Of a stretch of DNA of 5,228 nt, positions 1-5,228 are shown in pieces. Position numbers and translations under genes: made by a program. This stretch comes from a virus (taxonomy: Duplodnaviria > Heunggongvirae > Uroviricota > Caudoviricetes). Position 1 is the stretch's first letter. Each line of letters opens with the position of its first letter. The notes beneath the pieces are model-generated. The model was not told the DNA's origin and did not search any database. It saw nothing but the letters and a program-made list of their open reading frames with translations. The DNA lies in the IMG/VR virus record IMGVR_UViG_2548876953_000003, positions 1 to 5,228 of that record. One strand, given 5' to 3'.

Positions 1-249
1 GCGAAAGATGCAGATACCGACGAGCATAAACATCAGCAGAACGCAGCAGCAAAGCAGTCAAAACCATCACCTACACCTGAACAGGTTCTAAAAGCATTCA
101 CTGACGCAGCATTGCAGAAAAACACCGTGGAAGAGCTTAAACAGGCGTTCGCCAAAGCGTGGAAGATGCTCGAAGGCACACCGGAGCAGCACAAAGCGCA
201 GGACGTTTACAACATCAGACGAGACGAATTAGAAGGAGCTGCTGCTTAA
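1..249 (+). CDS. 3' end of a phage gene whose start lies upstream of the window; function unknown (possibly a recombination/annealing-type partner of the downstream SSB, speculative)
   Basis: Frame 1 is open for 82 codons from the window edge (AKDADTDEHKHQQNAAAKQ...RRDELEGAAA) and ends at TAA 247-249, overlapping the next gene's ATG (TAATG). Absent from the ORF track only because it has no start in the window. Confidence 0.5.
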   Translation, partial: AKDADTDEHKHQQNAAAKQSKPSPTPEQVLKAFTDAALQKNTVEELKQAFAKAWKMLEGTPEQHKAQDVYNIRRDELEGAAA

Positions 250-632
250 TGGCACATTCGATTACTGTAAGACTAAACAAGCCCGCAAGAGAGTTTCAGA
301 CCGGGGAAAATATCGGATTCAACATCCGTGCTGGCGTTCAGTATTACGATCGCCAGACAAAAAAGAAAGAATGGACAAACTACAGCGCCGTTGTATTTGC
401 CAAGCCGGGAGCGCAAGCGGATTACTACCGTAGTGTTCTTGTTGAAGGTGGCATTGTGGAAATTACCGGAGAAAACATCAGGGTTGATGTTTATCAGGGG
501 CAAAATGGTCAATCAATCACTCTTGAATTACTGAATGCAAAGATTGGATTTGCAGCTTCAGGAAATGGCCCGCAGCAGCAAAGTAGTAACCAGCAGAACA
601 CTCCTGTATACGACGATTCCATCCCATTCTGA
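249..632 (+). CDS. Phage single-stranded DNA-binding (SSB-like) protein, 127 aa, OB-fold with host-SSB-like C-terminal tip
   Basis: ATG at 249 preceded by AAGGAG (233-238); the track's start at 159 adds an Arg-rich extension that is the out-of-frame reading of the upstream gene. The protein ends ...TPVYDDSIPF, matching the acidic C-terminal tip of E. coli SSB (DDDIPF), after a Gln/Asn-rich linker. The core (EWTNYSAVVFAK...GENIRVDVYQGQNGQ) resembles SSB OB-fold strands. Confidence 0.75.
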   Translation: MAHSITVRLNKPAREFQTGENIGFNIRAGVQYYDRQTKKKEWTNYSAVVFAKPGAQADYYRSVLVEGGIVEITGENIRVDVYQGQNGQSITLELLNAKIGFAASGNGPQQQSSNQQNTPVYDDSIPF

Positions 633-655
633 TTTAGAAAAATAAGGATTTAATT

Positions 656-949
656 ATGCCAGCGCCTCTGTATGGTGCGGATGACGCGCGCCGCTGTTCC
701 GGCAATTCCGTATCGGAGGTGCTGGATAAATTCAGAAAAAACTACGATCGGATAATGTCGCTACCGCAGGAAACGAAAGAGGAAAAGGAATTTCGCCATT
801 GTATATGGCTTGCAGAGAAAGAAGAACGCGAGCGAATTTACCAGACATCAATCCGACCATTCCGCAAAGCCACATATACCCACTTCCCTGAAATTGACCC
901 GCGCCTGCGTAATTACCGCTCACGCTATGGCGCTATCAGTAATGACTGA
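656..949 (+). CDS. Hypothetical small basic phage protein, 97 aa
   Basis: ATG 656 with AAGGA (644-648) 7 nt upstream; 23-bp gap after ssb on the same strand; stop TGA 947-949. No recognisable motif beyond scattered Cys/His. Confidence 0.6.
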
Positions 950-1120
950 GGAATTTACCATGAGAGGACTTGCATACAATCCCGGCATTCTTCCGGCAGA
1001 AATGATTATTCGCCAACGCGTAAAGCCAATGCCATCGAGAGAGTAATTGCTTAAGAGAAAGAGTTTCGGTTCTGTTAATGACAACAAATATCTGAATGCT
1101 ATGTGGCGGAGTGGGAAAAA

Positions 1121-1708
1121 ATGAAACAAATGTCACTAATTGAGATGGATGGTTTTCTGAAAGGTAAATGCATCCCACGAGATCTAAAGGTTAACGAAAC
1201 AAACGCTGAATATCTTGTCCGTAAGTTCGGTGAACTTGAATCAAAACTGGAAACGGCGTTGCGGGAGTGTCGTTCTGCTGGAATCACGATTGATAACCTT
1301 GAGGCCAAGTGCGCGGCGCTGGCAGCGGAGAGTGCGGGGATGAAGAAGTTCTGCAAAGACGCTGCATTCGATGCCGATTACGAAGCAGAGCTAGGTATGG
1401 AGCGTGGTTTATTCAGTGATGCGCTTAACGAAATCAAAACCCCAGCCACCGATGCTTTCCTGGCTGAAGTACGTGCGGAAGCACGCAACGAGGGTATTAA
1501 CTATGCCGCAAGCCGTCTTGCTGCTGCTTTCAACCACGGATTTATCAATAAGTCTTTACGTGAAGTTTTCGATGTTACGCGCATGATTCTGTCAGCGAAA
1601 GAAGAGTTGGCTAATGAACCGCATCCGATTGATGGCCTGTCTGGTGAATATGCGGAGAAATCCCTTGAAGAATGGGCGGAACAGATTCGCAAAGGAGGCA
1701 ACCAGTGA
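1121..1708 (+). CDS. Hypothetical phage protein, 195 aa, predicted helical
   Basis: ATG 1121 with GGAG (1108-1111) 9 nt upstream, preferred over the track's GTG at 1103. Stop TGA 1706-1708 overlaps the next gene's GTG start (GTGA). Family not recognised. Confidence 0.65.
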   Translation: MKQMSLIEMDGFLKGKCIPRDLKVNETNAEYLVRKFGELESKLETALRECRSAGITIDNLEAKCAALAAESAGMKKFCKDAAFDADYEAELGMERGLFSDALNEIKTPATDAFLAEVRAEARNEGINYAASRLAAAFNHGFINKSLREVFDVTRMILSAKEELANEPHPIDGLSGEYAEKSLEEWAEQIRKGGNQ

Positions 1709-2445
1709 GCAAGATTGACTATCAGGCACTGCGTGCCAAGGCAGAAAAAGCAACGTGTGGTGTATGGTCGCTCGAATATGGAGAGAGCCGATTTGATTGT
1801 GATGATGCGTTAATTCATCGTGAAGTTGTTGGATATCTTCCCATTTGCAGAATTGAAGGAGCACATCCAGAAAGCGGTTTCGATGAAGATTTCCAAATGG
1901 AACAGCAGGCCAATGCTGAATTCATCGCCGCAGCCAATCCGGCTACTGTGCTGGCATTACTGGATGAACTGGAAAGAAACCAGCAATACATCAAACGCCG
2001 CGATCAGGAGAACGAGGAAATTGCGCTAACGGTAGGGAAGCTGCGTGTTGAGCTTGAGGAAGCAAAATCAAAACTCAACGAGCAGCGTGAGTATTACGAA
2101 GGTGTTATCTCGGATGGGAGTAAACGTATTGCTGAACTGGAGAAAAGCGAAGAGCAACTCATTAACGAGCGTGACCATGCTGAGTCTGCTTTAGCTGATA
2201 TGTACTTCGCAACAACCGGGGATAGGCCTGAGTGGAGTAACTGTTTCAGTTTTTCAGATGCTGTCGATGCCGTAGTTGACAGAATTGCTGATTTAGAAGC
2301 CAAACAGCCATCGCCAGTAGTACCGGAAGAAAAACCAATGCCTAACCCTCTTAGCATGTACACAGTTGATGCTGTTGCAGCTATTGCAGAGGTGAGAGGC
2401 TGGAACGCCTGCCGTGCAGCCATGCTTAAGGGAGATAAATCATGA
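1705..2445 (+). CDS. Ead/Ea22-like family protein, 246 aa, N-terminal conserved domain plus central coiled coil
   Basis: GTG 1705 preceded by AAAGGAGG (1691-1698) at 6 nt; the track's ATG 1672 has no RBS. N-terminus SKIDYQALRAKAEKAT..W and the motif EFIAAANPATVLALLDELE match what I recall of lambdoid Ead/Ea22-like proteins; residues about 100-170 are heptad-rich. From recall, not a search. Confidence 0.7.
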   Translation: MSKIDYQALRAKAEKATCGVWSLEYGESRFDCDDALIHREVVGYLPICRIEGAHPESGFDEDFQMEQQANAEFIAAANPATVLALLDELERNQQYIKRRDQENEEIALTVGKLRVELEEAKSKLNEQREYYEGVISDGSKRIAELEKSEEQLINERDHAESALADMYFATTGDRPEWSNCFSFSDAVDAVVDRIADLEAKQPSPVVPEEKPMPNPLSMYTVDAVAAIAEVRGWNACRAAMLKGDKS

Positions 2446-2792
2446 TTAATCGAACCAAACTGGAGCACATCCTCGAGTATGCCAGGCAGCAGAGGCGCTT
2501 TGGCCAGCTTTGTAAAATTCTGCCAGGAGATATGGTTGAAATCGTGGAGATTGCCATGCGTAAGACTGGCAACTCTCCGGTAAGTCCGGGTGGTTGGATA
2601 AGCTGTAGTGAGCGAATGCCCGCTCAAGATGATTGGATTTTAATTTATTCAAAGCACGGTGAGTATATGGCAGGACAGGTACAAGAGGAATACGTGGAGT
2701 TGAGCGACGGCACTTTATCGTGGTTAGGGAACGCCTTGTACTGGATGCTGCTACCAGAACCGCCGCAGGGAGTGAATGATGAATTGGCCTGA
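2442..2792 (+). CDS. DUF551-like phage protein, 116 aa
   Basis: ATG 2442 overlaps the upstream stop (ATGA); GGAG at 2431-2434. The motifs WISCSERMP...W..YW and C-terminal WMLLPEPPQ fit the DUF551 pattern as I remember it. Confidence 0.7.
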   Translation: MINRTKLEHILEYARQQRRFGQLCKILPGDMVEIVEIAMRKTGNSPVSPGGWISCSERMPAQDDWILIYSKHGEYMAGQVQEEYVELSDGTLSWLGNALYWMLLPEPPQGVNDELA

Positions 2793-2862
2793 AGCATTCA
2801 CCGCTGTAGGAGTTGCAATCGCGGTGGCATTTATTCTGTATTCGCTTTTCCGCTGGGGATAA
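2776..2862 (+). CDS. Candidate small membrane peptide, 28 aa (MMNWPEAFTAVGVAIAVAFILYSLFRWG); single predicted transmembrane helix
   Basis: Not in the ORF track (too short). ATG 2776 and 2779, with GGGAG (2768-2772) inside the 3' end of the DUF551 gene; stop TAA 2860-2862 sits 4 nt before the next ATG. A 19-residue uncharged hydrophobic core is flanked by polar or charged ends. It exactly fills the only gap between two coupled genes. Confidence 0.35.
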   Translation: MMNWPEAFTAVGVAIAVAFILYSLFRWG

Positions 2863-2866
2863 AGGA

Positions 2867-3109
2867 ATGTTCGCTCTGATTCAACGTGGTCAGATATACA
2901 CCGATAGCGCCGGCTACCCGATAAAAATTCTTCGCTGCATAAACAACACTGTGTTGTACAGAAGAATGGATGGGCGAACACAGTCGGTAAAAATAAACGA
3001 TTTTAATGAACTGTTTGAACGGATCGATCACCAGGAATACCGACAAATTCTGGCTGAAACAGAGCAGGAGAACCATCTGAAAAAATTACGCGCCATGCAA
3101 AGGAGATAA
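2867..3109 (+). CDS. Hypothetical small phage protein, 80 aa
   Basis: ATG 2867 with GGGGA (2855-2859) 7 nt upstream; the track's start at 2813 is a TTG that overlaps the hydrophobic peptide ORF. Family not recognised. Confidence 0.55.
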   Translation: MFALIQRGQIYTDSAGYPIKILRCINNTVLYRRMDGRTQSVKINDFNELFERIDHQEYRQILAETEQENHLKKLRAMQRR

Positions 3110-3189
3110 ACCGGTAAAGGTGTTCGCGATAAAGGTGAATATCGGCAATGAATAACAATCCTCGCACTGACGGGGATTTCTTTTATCTG

Positions 3190-3214
3190 AACTCGCTACG
3201 GCGAGTTTTGTTTT
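3190..3214 (+). terminator. Weak intrinsic-terminator-like hairpin (attenuator?) immediately upstream of the zinc-ribbon gene
   Basis: Perfect 7-bp inverted repeat AACTCGC (3190-3196) / GCGAGTT (3201-3207) with 4-nt loop, then TTTTGTTTT. Only 4 of 7 pairs are GC, and it abuts the GGAG/ATG of the next gene. Confidence 0.3.
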
Positions 3215-3226
3215 ATGGAGATGATT

Positions 3227-3526
3227 ATGGCCTGTTCAACATTCAACCCTTTAACGTTACAGAAATACCAGCCAGACCCTGAAGATTTATGCTCACTGTG
3301 TGGCGGAAATCATGGTAAAGCTGCCATGATCGAATGTAAGGACAAAATCCACATATGCCTTAATTGCGTTGATGTCCTCGTTGATATCAAAAATGAAAGA
3401 GAAGATAAAAAGCGTAGCGAGGCTATTCGCGCCTTAGATTCATGGATGCGAGATGGGTATAGTGCTGCGCAAATTTATGACTTAGCCATTTCAAAAGGCG
3501 AAATACCAGGTGTGCGAATCGAATAA
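3227..3526 (+). CDS. Hypothetical Cys4 zinc-ribbon protein, 99 aa
   Basis: ATG 3227 with GGAG (3217-3220) 6 nt upstream (the track's start at 3215 lacks an RBS). Two CxxC pairs 18 residues apart (CSLCGG ... CLNCVD) indicate a zinc ribbon. Confidence 0.6.
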   Translation: MACSTFNPLTLQKYQPDPEDLCSLCGGNHGKAAMIECKDKIHICLNCVDVLVDIKNEREDKKRSEAIRALDSWMRDGYSAAQIYDLAISKGEIPGVRIE

Positions 3527-3561
3527 GAAGCGCACTCAAGCATCTTTTGGGGAAATCACAA

Positions 3562-3729
3562 ATGCACTTCCGAGTCACAGGTGAATTGAATGGAGAACCA
3601 TTCAACAGAGTTATCGAAGCAGAGGACATCAACGACTGCTATGACCACTGGATGATATGGGCGCAGATAGCACATGCAGACGTAACCAATATTCGAATTG
3701 AAGAACTGAAAGAACACCAAGCCGCCTGA
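3562..3729 (+). CDS. Hypothetical small phage protein, 55 aa
   Basis: ATG 3562 with GGGGA (3549-3553) 8 nt upstream; the track's start at 3547 is a TTG. Stop TGA 3727-3729 lies in the loop of the terminator below. Confidence 0.5.
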   Translation: MHFRVTGELNGEPFNRVIEAEDINDCYDHWMIWAQIAHADVTNIRIEELKEHQAA

Positions 3730-3744
3730 TGGCGGTTTTTTATT
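3719..3744 (+). terminator. Rho-independent terminator at the end of the early accessory gene array
   Basis: Stem AAGCCGCC (3719-3726) pairs with GGCGGTTT (3731-3738) including one G-U pair, loop TGAT, followed by a T-run TTTTTTATT (3736-3744). Confidence 0.65.
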
Positions 3745-3751
3745 GCCTGAT

Positions 3752-3767
3752 TTGCAGGTTCGATTCC
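3752..3767 (+). other. tRNA T-arm-like fragment (not an intact tRNA); matches my recollection of the argW tRNA-Arg(CCU) T-arm
   Basis: TTGCAGGTTCGATTCC contains the canonical T-loop GGTTCGATTCC, but the 3' partner of the T-stem and any acceptor stem or CCA are missing (next bases CTATTCGGAG). Lies between the terminator and the excisionase gene. Confidence 0.4.
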
Positions 3768-3786
3768 CTATTCGGAGATAGCACTC

Positions 3787-3987
3787 ATGCAACACGAACT
3801 ACAACCTGATTCACTGGTTGATTTGAAATTCATCATGGCTGATACTGGCTTTGGTAAAACCTTCATCTACGACCGGATTAAGTCCGGCGACCTGCCTAAA
3901 GCCAAAGTTATCCACGGTCGAGCAAGATGGTTATATCGTGACCATTGTGAATTCAAAAATAAGCTCTTAAGCCGCGCTAATGGGTAA
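3787..3987 (+). CDS. torI: AlpA/TorI-family excisionase (recombination directionality factor), 66 aa, winged-helix
   Basis: ATG 3787 with GGAG (3774-3777) 9 nt upstream. The sequence MQHELQPDSLVDLKFIMADTGFGKTFIYDRIKSGDLPKAKVIHGRARWLYRDHCEFKNKLLSRANG has the AlpA-family pattern and the length of KplE1 TorI. It is the last gene before the att-like junction. The symbol rests on recall and context. Confidence 0.8.
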   Translation: MQHELQPDSLVDLKFIMADTGFGKTFIYDRIKSGDLPKAKVIHGRARWLYRDHCEFKNKLLSRANG

Positions 3988-4003
3988 AATAGCGGGTAAA
4001 ATA
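3982..4003. repeat. Tandem direct repeat GGGTAAAATA-gc-GGGTAAAATA overlapping the excisionase stop codon; candidate integrase arm-type or RDF binding sites
   Basis: Two exact 10-bp copies (3982-3991 and 3994-4003) separated by 2 bp, about 60-80 bp from the putative att core. Confidence 0.45.
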
Positions 4004-4030
4004 TTTCTCACATCTAAAAAATACCATTCT

Positions 4031-4043
4031 AATCAATCCCCTG
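4031..4043. promoter_or_regulatory. IHF-like binding motif between the direct repeats and the att core
   Basis: AATCAATCCCCTG matches the IHF consensus WATCAANNNNTTR with one mismatch. Its position between arm-type repeats and core fits tyrosine-recombinase att architecture. Confidence 0.25.
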
Positions 4044-4060
4044 CCACTCTAAGTAGATGT

Positions 4061-4075
4061 CTGCAGGGGACACCA
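4061..4075 (+). other. Putative prophage attR core: a copy of the 3' end of tRNA-Arg (argW), CTGCAGGGGACACCA
   Basis: The sequence ends in ...GACACCA like a tRNA 3' terminus and equals what I recall as the last 15 nt of argW and the KplE1 att core. It is preceded by an 8-bp inverted partner TCCCCTGC (4037-4044) of GCAGGGGA (4063-4070). Phage-type genes lie to the left, chromosomal-type DNA to the right. Confidence 0.55.
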
Positions 4076-4515
4076 GATACCCTTCAAACGAAATCTACCT
4101 TCACCCCGTAAAAGATAGGTTTGGCAGCACACTTGCCTTATATCTACTCATTTTTACTGCAACAGGTTGAAATCTCAGCACTGTCAGAAAGCGCTGATGA
4201 CTAAACAGCCCTGGGCCGGGCGATGTAACCATCACACAGAATCCTGATAGCGAAATATGGCGTGACTCGATACTTCACTCCGCAATGCATTCCTTGATGA
4301 ATTCGCAGGACCGTGATACACGGGACAGGTCGCTGAATGACGACAATGTCCTGGAAATCAGCGAACCGCGCATCTGAAGTACATTTGAGCGACTGTACCA
4401 GAACATGAATGAGGCGTTTGGATTAGGTGATTATTAGCAGGGCTAAGCACTTTAGTATTATTATTTTCCGGTTGAGGGATAGGGAGATATCGACAACAAC
4501 CGGAAAAGTTTACGT

Positions 4516-5177
4516 CTATATTGCTGAAGGTACAGGCGTTTCCATAACTATTTGCTCGCGTTTTTTACTCAGGAAGAAAATGCCAAATAGCAACATCAGG
4601 CAGACAATACCCGAAATTGCGAAGAAAACTGTCTGGTAGCCTGCGTGGTCAAAGAGTATCCCAGTCGGCGTTGAAAGCAGCACAATCCCAAGCGAACTGG
4701 CAATTTGAAAACCAATCAGAAAGATCGTCGACGACAGGCGCTTATCAAAATTTGCCACGCTGTATTTGAAGACGGATATGACACAAAGTGGAACCTCAAT
4801 AGCATGTAACAGCTTCACTAATGAAATAATCCAGGGGTTAACGAACAGCGCGCAGGAAAGGATACGCAACGCCATAATCACAACACCGATAAGTAATGCA
4901 TTTTTTGGCCCTACCCGATTCACAAAGAAAGGAATAATCGCCATGCATAGCGCTTCGAGTACCACCTGGAATGAGTTGAGATAACCATACAGGCGCGTTC
5001 CTACATCGTGTGATTCGAATAAACCTGCATAAAAGACAGGAAAAAGTTGTTGATCAAAAATGTTATAGAAAGACCACGTCCCCACAATAAATATGACGAA
5101 AACCCAGAAGTTTCGATCCTTGAAAACTGCGATAAAATCCTCTTTTTTTACCCCTCCCGCATCCGCCGCTACGCACT
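4516..5177 (-). pseudogene. cscB: 3' fragment (about 220 codons) of a LacY-family (oligosaccharide:H+ symporter) permease, probably sucrose permease cscB, truncated at its 5' side by IS30
   Basis: The minus-strand frame open from 5184 down to stop 4516-4518 aligns with LacY residues about 195-417 (FKDRNFWVFVIFIVGTWSFYNIFDQQLF vs LacY [42 protein letters not shown] vs HMFEVPFLLVGCFKY). Similarity stops at 5177/5178 where IS30 begins, so no N-terminal half is present. The symbol cscB is inferred from family plus the argW-csc/dsd locus context. Confidence 0.65.
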
Positions 5178-5228
5178 TGTAGATTCAATCTGTCAATGCA
5201 ACACCCCTTTCAATTATCTCTTTCGGTG
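5178..5228 (-). mobile_element. Right end of insertion sequence IS30 (terminal inverted repeat plus 3' end of the transposase gene), continuing beyond the window
   Basis: 5178-5203 reads TGTAGATTCAATCTGTCAATGCAACA, matching the roughly 26-bp IS30 terminal inverted repeat as I recall it (TGTAGATTCAATTGGTCAACGCAACA on the other end). The minus-strand frame 5228 to 5185 encodes PKEIIERGVALTD followed by stop, matching the IS30 transposase C-terminus. Confidence 0.65.
5185..5228 (-). CDS. IS30 transposase (InsI-type), last 13 codons plus stop; the remainder lies beyond the window end
   Basis: Minus-strand translation ...PKEIIERGVALTD, stop codon complementary to 5185-5187, located inside the IS30 inverted repeat as in IS30. 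Confidence 0.55.
   Translation of the reverse strand, partial: PKEIIERGVALTD

Follow-up and report, generated by a model that had tools for sequence, protein, structure and literature searches.

The reading frame between the DUF551 and DUF4222 genes

We analyzed a 5,228-nucleotide (nt) stretch of a Caudoviricetes virus (IMG/VR record IMGVR_UViG_2548876953_000003, positions 1 to 5,228; hereafter, the window), in which a very short open reading frame (ORF) lies wedged between a gene encoding a DUF551 protein and a gene encoding a DUF4222 protein. The initial annotation had proposed that this ORF is a gene for a single-helix membrane peptide which routine annotation misses. All the comparative tests that we ran support this proposal, with translation inferred from conservation. 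The conserved mini-gene spans positions 2779 to 2862 on the + strand and has 27 codons plus a stop codon (MNWPEAFTAVGVAIAVAFILYSLFRWG). Its frame, start, stop, and ribosome-binding site (RBS) are conserved, and it is under purifying selection. Judged from these comparisons, it is very probably a real protein-coding gene, and its product is predicted with good confidence to be membrane spanning.

The ORF as first reported runs from 2776 to 2862 on the + strand and consists of 28 codons and TAA (MMNWPEAFTAVGVAIAVAFILYSLFRWG, from the ORF list). It cannot be extended in the 5′ direction because an in-frame TGA lies at 2773 to 2775, immediately upstream of ATG 2776. An RBS had been noted by the initial annotation and is indeed present: a Shine-Dalgarno (SD) sequence, GGGAG, is read from the + strand at 2768 to 2772, within the last codons of the DUF551 gene. 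This upstream gene (2442 to 2792, + strand; Pfam PF04448, E value of 2.3e-9) holds both the SD sequence and the start of the peptide gene in its 3′ end, and it shares 17 nt with the ORF of 2776 to 2862, which bears out the earlier statement that the ORF starts inside the upstream gene. The 4-nt distance to the next gene is also as it had been described, with the peptide stop codon TAA at 2860 to 2862 and the ATG of the DUF4222 gene (2867 to 3109, + strand; Pfam PF13973, E value of 7e-16) at 2867.

The best 19-residue segment of the peptide, AFTAVGVAIAVAFILYSLF, averages 2.28 on the Kyte-Doolittle scale and sums to −0.86 kcal/mol on the Hessa scale, in agreement with the single transmembrane helix that had been predicted. 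On both scales, the predicted transmembrane core corresponds to residues 6 to 24 of the 27-amino-acid (aa) peptide (positions 2794 to 2850, + strand), flanked by W3 and W26. Among the 54 six-frame ORFs of 20 to 40 aa in the window, the peptide ORF is by far the most hydrophobic (the next best has a Hessa sum of +4.97), and shuffled windows contained a mean of 0.055 ORFs as hydrophobic. We scored nine variants, namely, the window allele as a 27-aa and as a 28-aa peptide and seven other alleles. The mean Kyte-Doolittle value was between 1.85 and 2.69 in all nine, and every variant has a 19-residue hydrophobic core bracketed by two tryptophans. W3 and W26 are 23 residues apart, about 34 Å in a helix and roughly the width of a bilayer, a spacing which suits interfacial anchoring. 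An acidic residue, E/D5, is found near the N terminus and a basic residue, R25, near the C terminus, while G11, A15, and A17 are nearly invariant though not imposed by the search pattern described below. With 27 aa and one bilayer-spanning hydrophobic segment, the product falls within the size range (≤50 aa) and helix definition of small single-span membrane proteins. A lipoprotein or signal peptide was considered and rejected: YSIC does not form a lipobox, 4 residues would remain after cleavage there, and the window allele carries F at the position of C.

The window is about 99.9% identical to a prophage in Escherichia coli DEC9B (over window positions 1 to 5184) and in two bovine strains, and the DNA of O26:H11 strain 11368 is 100% identical over positions 2442 to 3110. 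The annotated gene order in DEC9B is kil (upstream, beyond the window), erf, an anti-RecBCD gene, an ea22-like gene, the DUF551 gene, the DUF4222 gene, two hypothetical genes, and torI, which encodes a recombination directionality factor and is followed by a chromosomal gene for a sucrose-type major facilitator superfamily transporter. The genes around the peptide ORF in this prophage are all on one strand. We assign this exo-xis-like region to the early-left operon of a P22-like/lambdoid prophage inserted at the argW/csc locus. In lambda and in the phages that carry Shiga toxin (Stx) genes, pL drives the exo-xis region, which is among the first to be transcribed, within minutes of infection; it is reported to be very early, nonessential, and mosaic (PMC10834534).

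Conservation of the frame and its movement as a unit

Two samples of homologous loci were compared. The first consists of 80 IMG/VR loci fetched via the DUF4222 protein, without selection on the peptide. The ORF is found upstream of the DUF4222 gene in 51 of them, as four allele types, and is intact in all 51; the other 29 loci, which are phiP27-like, have a different upstream gene and do not carry the ORF. The second sample consists of 188 loci found by a degenerate DNA motif over the codons of WP[ED]A and [YF]S.[CF]RW, a motif which is silent on the start, the stop, and the 14 codons between its two parts. Here, the frame always has 27 codons. The start position is kept in 184 loci (ATG in 182 and GTG in 2), and a stop follows codon 27 in 188 of 188 (TAA in 181 and TGA in 7). 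The loci yield 34 distinct translations if frameshifted forms are counted; those with an intact start give 31 peptide variants. Frameshifts or stops in otherwise conserved regions had been named beforehand as the observation that would speak against a gene; with every ORF in the DUF4222-anchored sample intact and only two defective lineages seen, this test favors the ORF.

The SD sequence is spaced 3 nt from ATG 2776 and 6 nt from ATG 2779. The codon equivalent to 2776 is GTG in one lineage (L025), and the T- and S-type alleles lack it. Because every diverged homologue begins with M-[T/S/N]-W-P, at the codon equivalent to 2779, the conserved gene start is most likely ATG 2779, and ATG 2776 would be specific to the lineage of the window. 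The ORF that had been reported at 2776 to 2862 is thus present, and the part of the report that needs correction is its length, which is probably 27 aa and not 28.

In 183 of the 188 loci, a GGAG-type SD sequence precedes the homologous start by 5 to 11 nt. In 177 loci, the start codon overlaps or directly adjoins the stop of the upstream gene, by an ATGA in 119, by 1 nt in 31, by 14 nt in 23 (the window type), and by 5 nt in 4, while a 4-nt gap separates the upstream stop from the peptide start in the remaining 11. The ATGA start/stop overlap is a classical arrangement for translational coupling. With the SD sequence and the start both inside the 3′ end of the DUF551 gene, such coupling would be expected in the window as well.

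Selection was assessed on a neighbor-joining tree of 55 to 56 distinct alleles, with parsimony mapping of single-nucleotide codon changes. There were 79 synonymous and 56 nonsynonymous changes against an expected synonymous fraction of 0.27, giving a ratio of nonsynonymous to synonymous rates (omega) of ~0.26 (P = 7e-15). For the codons left unconstrained by the search pattern (2, 7 to 20, and 27), the counts were 53 and 50, with an omega of ~0.41 (P = 5e-6). The comparison of synonymous with nonsynonymous change, which had been suggested as a check on the frame, therefore came out as a synonymous excess. The replacements are mostly A/V, I/V, S/T, A/T, M/V, I/M, and F/L, i.e., conservative and hydrophobic. 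In pairwise simulations, an open frame together with hydrophobicity was retained with P values of 0.0008 to 0.15 per pair. An omega of 0.26 to 0.41 combined with retained hydrophobicity argues for selection on the amino acid sequence.

The wobble-aligned antisense frame necessarily has the same omega as the sense frame. Only 25 of 83 contexts have a start codon for it upstream of the block (ATG in 5), at inconsistent distances, and its stops are scattered. We ruled out an antisense gene on the grounds that neither start nor stop is conserved. Each of the remaining four frames contains stops or has an omega of ≥0.8. The frame under selection is thus the sense ORF.

The boundaries of the conserved unit were examined in 40 representatives differing in at least one flank. 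Across these contexts, the major-allele frequency is 0.86 to 0.93 inside the ORF. From 33 nt upstream and directly 3′ of the stop, it is 0.41 to 0.49. Over the last 20 nt before the start, it climbs from 0.45 to 0.55 up to 0.67 to 0.76, and right behind the stop it drops to 0.41. Similarity between contexts thus spans from about 20 nt upstream of the ATG to the stop codon, and the conserved unit, as delimited by these alignments, is the ORF with its RBS. The genes upstream belong to at least four unrelated families; they encode a full or truncated DUF551 protein in 94 loci, a 114-aa protein in 39, a 209- to 210-aa protein as in phi467 in 14, and a protein of the 933W L0139 type in 7. There are at least 10 downstream contexts, including DUF4222 (95 of 188), hok/sok (41), an 80-aa ORF (10), and a toxin-antitoxin pair on the opposite strand (8), the rest being hairpins or other sequences. 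The next gene starts between −10 and +4 nt from the peptide stop in 106 loci. An obligatory link to either DUF4222 or DUF551 was rejected, given the 29 DUF4222 loci that do not carry the ORF and the variety of upstream families.

The hok/sok locus that directly follows the peptide stop in 41 loci is complete (for instance, at 1592 to 1801 of L219, 926 to 1100 of L004, and 1791 to 1965 of L221). In these contexts, a promoter-like TTTGCA-17-TAGAAT lies 6 nt past the peptide stop. The Rfam sok model scores 113 to 118 bits, and the sok/hok model begins about 40 nt past the stop. The junction between the peptide ORF and hok/sok is at the same nucleotide in different phages. Because the hok promoter and leader begin past the peptide stop, the peptide ORF lies outside the hok module. 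At the other end of the cassette, several upstream proteins, in loci of the L148 and L146 types, end in ...GWISCSERMPDDRQEVNQ, in which the first 16 positions of the DUF551 domain are fused to the usual DUF551 C-terminal tail with the peptide SD sequence. These endings look like the result of recurrent internal deletion or recombination in DUF551 with the junction to the peptide cassette preserved.

Distribution and annotation

We searched complete E. coli genomes with blastn and found homologues in 1561 of 5426 (~29%), at 2953 places, with up to 7 copies per genome and 115 copies on plasmids. By tblastn against a phage collection, 99 phage records carry the peptide. Lambda is absent from the matches listed (60 of the 99). 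The peptide is identical in VT1-Sakai, BP-4795, YYZ-2008, JLK-2012, and phi467, and the copy in Sakai Sp15 is identical to the window peptide; identities of 48 to 70% are found in 933W, VT2-Sakai, Min27, ArgO145, PhiR49_2, and PhiR12. The peptide is encoded, often in multiple copies, in Stx phages of the main enterohemorrhagic E. coli (EHEC) lineages, namely, O157 (Sakai and EDL933), O26, O103, and O111. Copies also occur beyond exo-xis regions, at the right end of 933W/Sp5 and beside the DUF977/DUF968 genes in E24377A.

The virulent Vequintavirinae phage Av-05 (L007, NC_025830.1, positions 74413 to 74493) has an intact copy, MTWPEAFTTVGVVMAVAFAVYSVCRWG, which is ATGA-coupled to the upstream gene and has many synonymous differences from the prophage alleles. 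An intact copy with such differences indicates, at the level of sequence comparison, that the cassette is exchanged between temperate and virulent phages. In PLSDB, 180 plasmids carry the peptide (Escherichia, 154; Salmonella, 25; Klebsiella, 1). Of these, 174 are predicted to be nonmobilizable, and sizes are mostly ~80 to 130 kb among the matches listed; we take these carriers to be P1-like phage-plasmids.

A motif scan of one genome per species gave hits in Escherichia and Shigella only, besides three tiny contigs in unrelated taxa. The latter (L089, L092, and L095) are exact motif matches on contigs of 369 to 1780 bp labeled as a Segatella copri metagenome-assembled genome, Xanthomonas pisi, and Acinetobacter idrijaensis, and they are probably E. 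coli phage contamination of the assemblies and not true occurrences. No copy is present in CPS-53 (yfdS-yfdT-torI), the equivalent argW prophage of K-12 and the one part of the K-12 genome that was searched. This absence may be one reason why K-12 small-protein catalogues missed the peptide.

The prediction that the gene would escape routine annotation was borne out. RefSeq records produced with the Prokaryotic Genome Annotation Pipeline (PGAP), including those of DEC9B and 11368, have nothing annotated between DUF551 and DUF4222 in any record examined, and records with 100% identical DNA give only these two genes. Scans of two variants against Pfam and NCBIfam returned no family. The best hits, DUF883_C and KdpF, were far below cutoff (for KdpF, TIGR02115, an E value of 0.24 and a score of 11.5 bits where the cutoff is 26.85, in a phage operon and not in kdpFABC), no Hok/Gef or other toxin family was found even at an E value of ≤1, and no family of Kil/DicB-type peptides matched. 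Matches to PHROGs were weak and did not agree between variants: phrog_4612 was hit at E values of 0.001 to 0.02 by two of eight 27/28-aa variants and by one N-terminally extended form, phrog_35838 was hit at 0.05 to 0.085, and the remaining variants had no PHROG match. Rfam gave no match in the window at an E value of ≤1, and no promoter-like site was found in window positions 2300 to 3300. Absent from RefSeq annotation in the records examined and from Pfam, NCBIfam, and PHROGs, the peptide escapes pangenome, transcriptome, and proteome analyses that rely on annotation.

By exact look-up, a few GenBank submitters were found to have named the peptide a “hypothetical protein” or “bacteriophage protein” (for example, ASL58468.1, ETI78407.1, and AOM45384.1), with no RefSeq-style family name, and a protein search with a 45-aa extended form (P0004) returned 3 entries only. 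The family is almost absent from protein databases. One database variant (P0021) does not have the canonical ATG and is called from an upstream ATG. In one protein cluster at “90% identity,” the 27-aa peptide is joined to DUF551 proteins of 121 aa in which it does not occur; this cluster appears to be an artifact of chaining via partial calls at contig edges (for example, P0003 and P0016). Because calls of this type are really the peptide frame, some NCBI entries named “DUF551, partial” are mislabeled copies of the peptide. A literature search found the motif WPEAF in no relevant paper, and the peptide is missing from the supplements of Huecker 2017, Fesenko 2024, and Pro-SMP finder. In the Huecker 2017 supplement, the Sp5 (VT2-Sakai) allele was sought by sequence and by coordinates (1305785 to 1305868), and the Sp15 copy was sought by sequence only.

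Two further observations concern the surroundings of the gene. Downstream, two tandem terminator-like hairpins with T-tails are found on the + strand at 3157 to 3178 and 3189 to 3208, between the end of the DUF4222 gene at 3109 and an ORF that begins at 3215. They suggest that the early-left operon contains a transcriptional boundary or an attenuator here. The pL transcripts of lambdoid phages are N-antiterminated, so the hairpins could gate how the distal genes are expressed. In the DEC9B prophage, a DUF2737 gene upstream of the ea22-like gene has an internal stop and is called a pseudogene by PGAP (window positions ~960 to 1124), which also lists a partial hypothetical gene (~1121 to 1246), while window positions 1103 to 1708 form an open 201-codon ORF which PGAP does not annotate as intact. 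The region from 960 to 1708 may reflect gene decay or misannotation.

Alternative readings, possible function, and known systems

The reading that we favor, and consider on the whole somewhat probable, is that of a mini-gene of temperate coliphages for an early, translationally coupled inner-membrane accessory peptide that binds a membrane partner. The gene would probably be transcribed together with the ea22 and DUF551 genes, and the peptide would be made early. Ribosomes would initiate at ATG 2779 via the GGGAG within the last DUF551 codons. The product would insert into the inner membrane as a single-span helix, probably with its N terminus outside and its C terminus inside, an orientation that the charges favor weakly, and would serve as a dispensable accessory factor. 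Its small-residue face, G11-x3-A15...S22, may pack against another membrane protein, of either host or phage origin, in a way that by analogy resembles AcrZ, MgtS, and KdpF. Gross membrane damage seems to us less likely. Within this reading, the role of a modulator, as opposed to a toxin or some other role, is a tentative assignment which we would not yet call probable.

Several points weigh against this reading. Ten of the 27 codons are constrained by the search pattern, and their invariance is partly circular. The interior diverges fast, with the window allele differing from other alleles at 8 to 13 of 27 residues, and in pairwise simulations amino acid changes were not below the neutral level in five of six pairs (P = 0.24 to 0.66) and were below it for the Av-05 allele only (P = 0.007). 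The hydrophobicity is moderate, with a Hessa sum of up to +1.6 kcal/mol in the 933W allele, and the helical-wheel conservation moment is weak (0.19). Neither the peptide nor its Sakai coordinates appear in the supplements of the Sakai ribosome profiling (RIBOseq) study, which reportedly used uninduced cultures, where prophage early genes are expected to be silent. Finally, the gene is defective in Shigella phage POCJ13, where W3 is changed from TGG to TAG (L225, positions 698 to 709), and in the vB_EcoS-689R5 lineage, where 1 nt is deleted after the ATG (L006, positions 799 to 881; 4 of 188 loci). The two defective lineages suggest that the gene is dispensable. The GenBank record of vB_EcoS-689R5 annotates the resulting out-of-frame ORF of 36 codons (URC08898.1).

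The most serious alternative is a peptide that damages membranes, i.e., a type I toxin-like, abortive-infection, or lysis-timing effector that would depolarize or permeabilize them like Hok, TisB, Ibs, or DinQ. Its size and lone hydrophobic helix match this class, toxicity could be tolerable in an exo-xis context that is expected to be repressed in lysogens, and the ORF is found directly 5′ of hok/sok or beside another toxin-antitoxin pair in the 41 and 8 loci mentioned above. However, no toxin family matches the peptide, and the hok promoter and leader begin past its stop. Neither an Rfam antisense RNA in the window (E value of ≤1; an unrecognized one is conceivable) nor a promoter-like site near the ORF was found, and a gene ATGA-coupled within polycistronic operons has no tight control of its own. 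Furthermore, Ala, Gly, and Val are abundant in the helix, which lacks a charged tail of the kind that typifies Hok, Ldr, and TisB, and up to seven copies per genome are tolerated. We therefore consider a toxin unlikely.

A second alternative places the function in the act of translation, with the ORF passing ribosomes to the downstream gene or preventing polarity and the peptide being a by-product. The coupled starts in 177 of 188 loci would suit such a relay, as would the close downstream starts in 106. On the other hand, about 44% of the loci do not have a close downstream gene and are instead followed by hok/sok with its own promoter, terminator hairpins, or genes on the opposite strand. 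Nor does a relay need a fixed length of 27 codons, conserved termini, retained hydrophobicity, or an omega of 0.26 to 0.41, and we judge it a poor explanation, somewhat less likely than a toxin. A third possibility is that the conserved block of ~100 nt is untranslated and kept as DNA or RNA, for instance as a boundary or linker which favors recombination between phage modules or as an unrecognized RNA element. Sharp mosaic junctions in many contexts are what a lambdoid recombination linker would show. Against this stand the codon-periodic substitutions and synonymous excess in the frame of the ORF, with four of the five other frames having an omega of ≥0.8 or stops, and the fixation of ATG, stop, and SD sequence despite up to 30% nucleotide variation; with no Rfam match and no consistent start or stop in the wobble-aligned antisense frame, an untranslated block is very unlikely. 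Lastly, programmed ribosomal frameshifting could append the peptide to the upstream protein as a C-terminal membrane anchor, to which the out-of-frame overlap with the 3′ end of the upstream gene and the database cluster with 121-aa DUF551 proteins might point. This reading is hardly credible, as these proteins do not hold the peptide and the cluster is an artifact of partial calls, the offset is +1 in the window and −1 in ATGA contexts with no overlap in 11 loci, the families of the upstream proteins number at least four and are unrelated, and the ORF has its own SD sequence and ATG.

Beyond the favored reading of an accessory membrane peptide, the SD sequence and the 27-codon ORF could together form an unrecognized autonomous microprotein cassette, possibly the smallest phage moron, kept in ~29% of the genomes by targeting a specific inner-membrane machine. 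We rate this extension as possible but less likely than not. The cassette would move among lambdoid prophages, presumed P1-like phage-plasmids, and virulent rV5-like phages, and its target might be, for example, the DNA entry route of superinfecting phages, a transporter, or a defense or division complex. If true, it should confer a selectable phenotype on the phage or the lysogen. Like phage morons, the peptide gene is a discrete unit with sharp end junctions in many unrelated contexts, but it is a much smaller unit and carries an SD sequence only, with no promoter or terminator of its own, so the cassette depends on the host operon.

Among known systems, the exo-xis genes orf60a, orf61, orf63, orf73, ea22, and ea8.5 share the neighborhood of the peptide gene, which directly follows ea22 and DUF551 genes. 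Both are mosaic, and the apparent dispensability of the peptide agrees with the nonessentiality reported for the exo-xis region. By contrast, the known exo-xis proteins are soluble, whereas the peptide is predicted to be membrane embedded and also occurs elsewhere. Effects on the lysis-lysogeny decision and on the induction of Stx prophages have been reported for the exo-xis genes, among which a membrane-acting member would be a player of a new type. The Kil/DicB-type peptides are soluble and target FtsZ or MinC, unlike a peptide predicted to be embedded in the membrane. The type I toxins Hok/Gef, TisB, Ibs, DinQ, and Ldr are, like the peptide, short, hydrophobic, and encoded by mobile elements, and the peptide gene often lies beside hok/sok. 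The peptide differs from them in having no family match, recognized antisense RNA, dedicated promoter, or mRNA fold-back control, in being translationally coupled in an operon, and in not having a charged tail.

The closest analogy for a possible action may be the E. coli modulators of the AcrZ, MgtS, KdpF, CydX, and YohP class, which resemble the peptide in having 20 to 50 aa, one helix, no cleavable signal, and a small-residue face and in having been missed by annotation (PMC12648545). There is no sequence relationship, and those genes are chromosomal and linked to the operons of their partners, while the peptide gene is phage borne and mobile. The peptide is a new family of a known kind of gene and is unsurprising in principle; what is notable is how prevalent it is in EHEC phages, that it moves like a cassette, and that curated annotation lacks it completely. 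It offers a test case for whether comparative genomics can reliably rescue genes of fewer than 30 codons and whether the unit of mosaic exchange in phages is sometimes a single microprotein gene with its RBS only.

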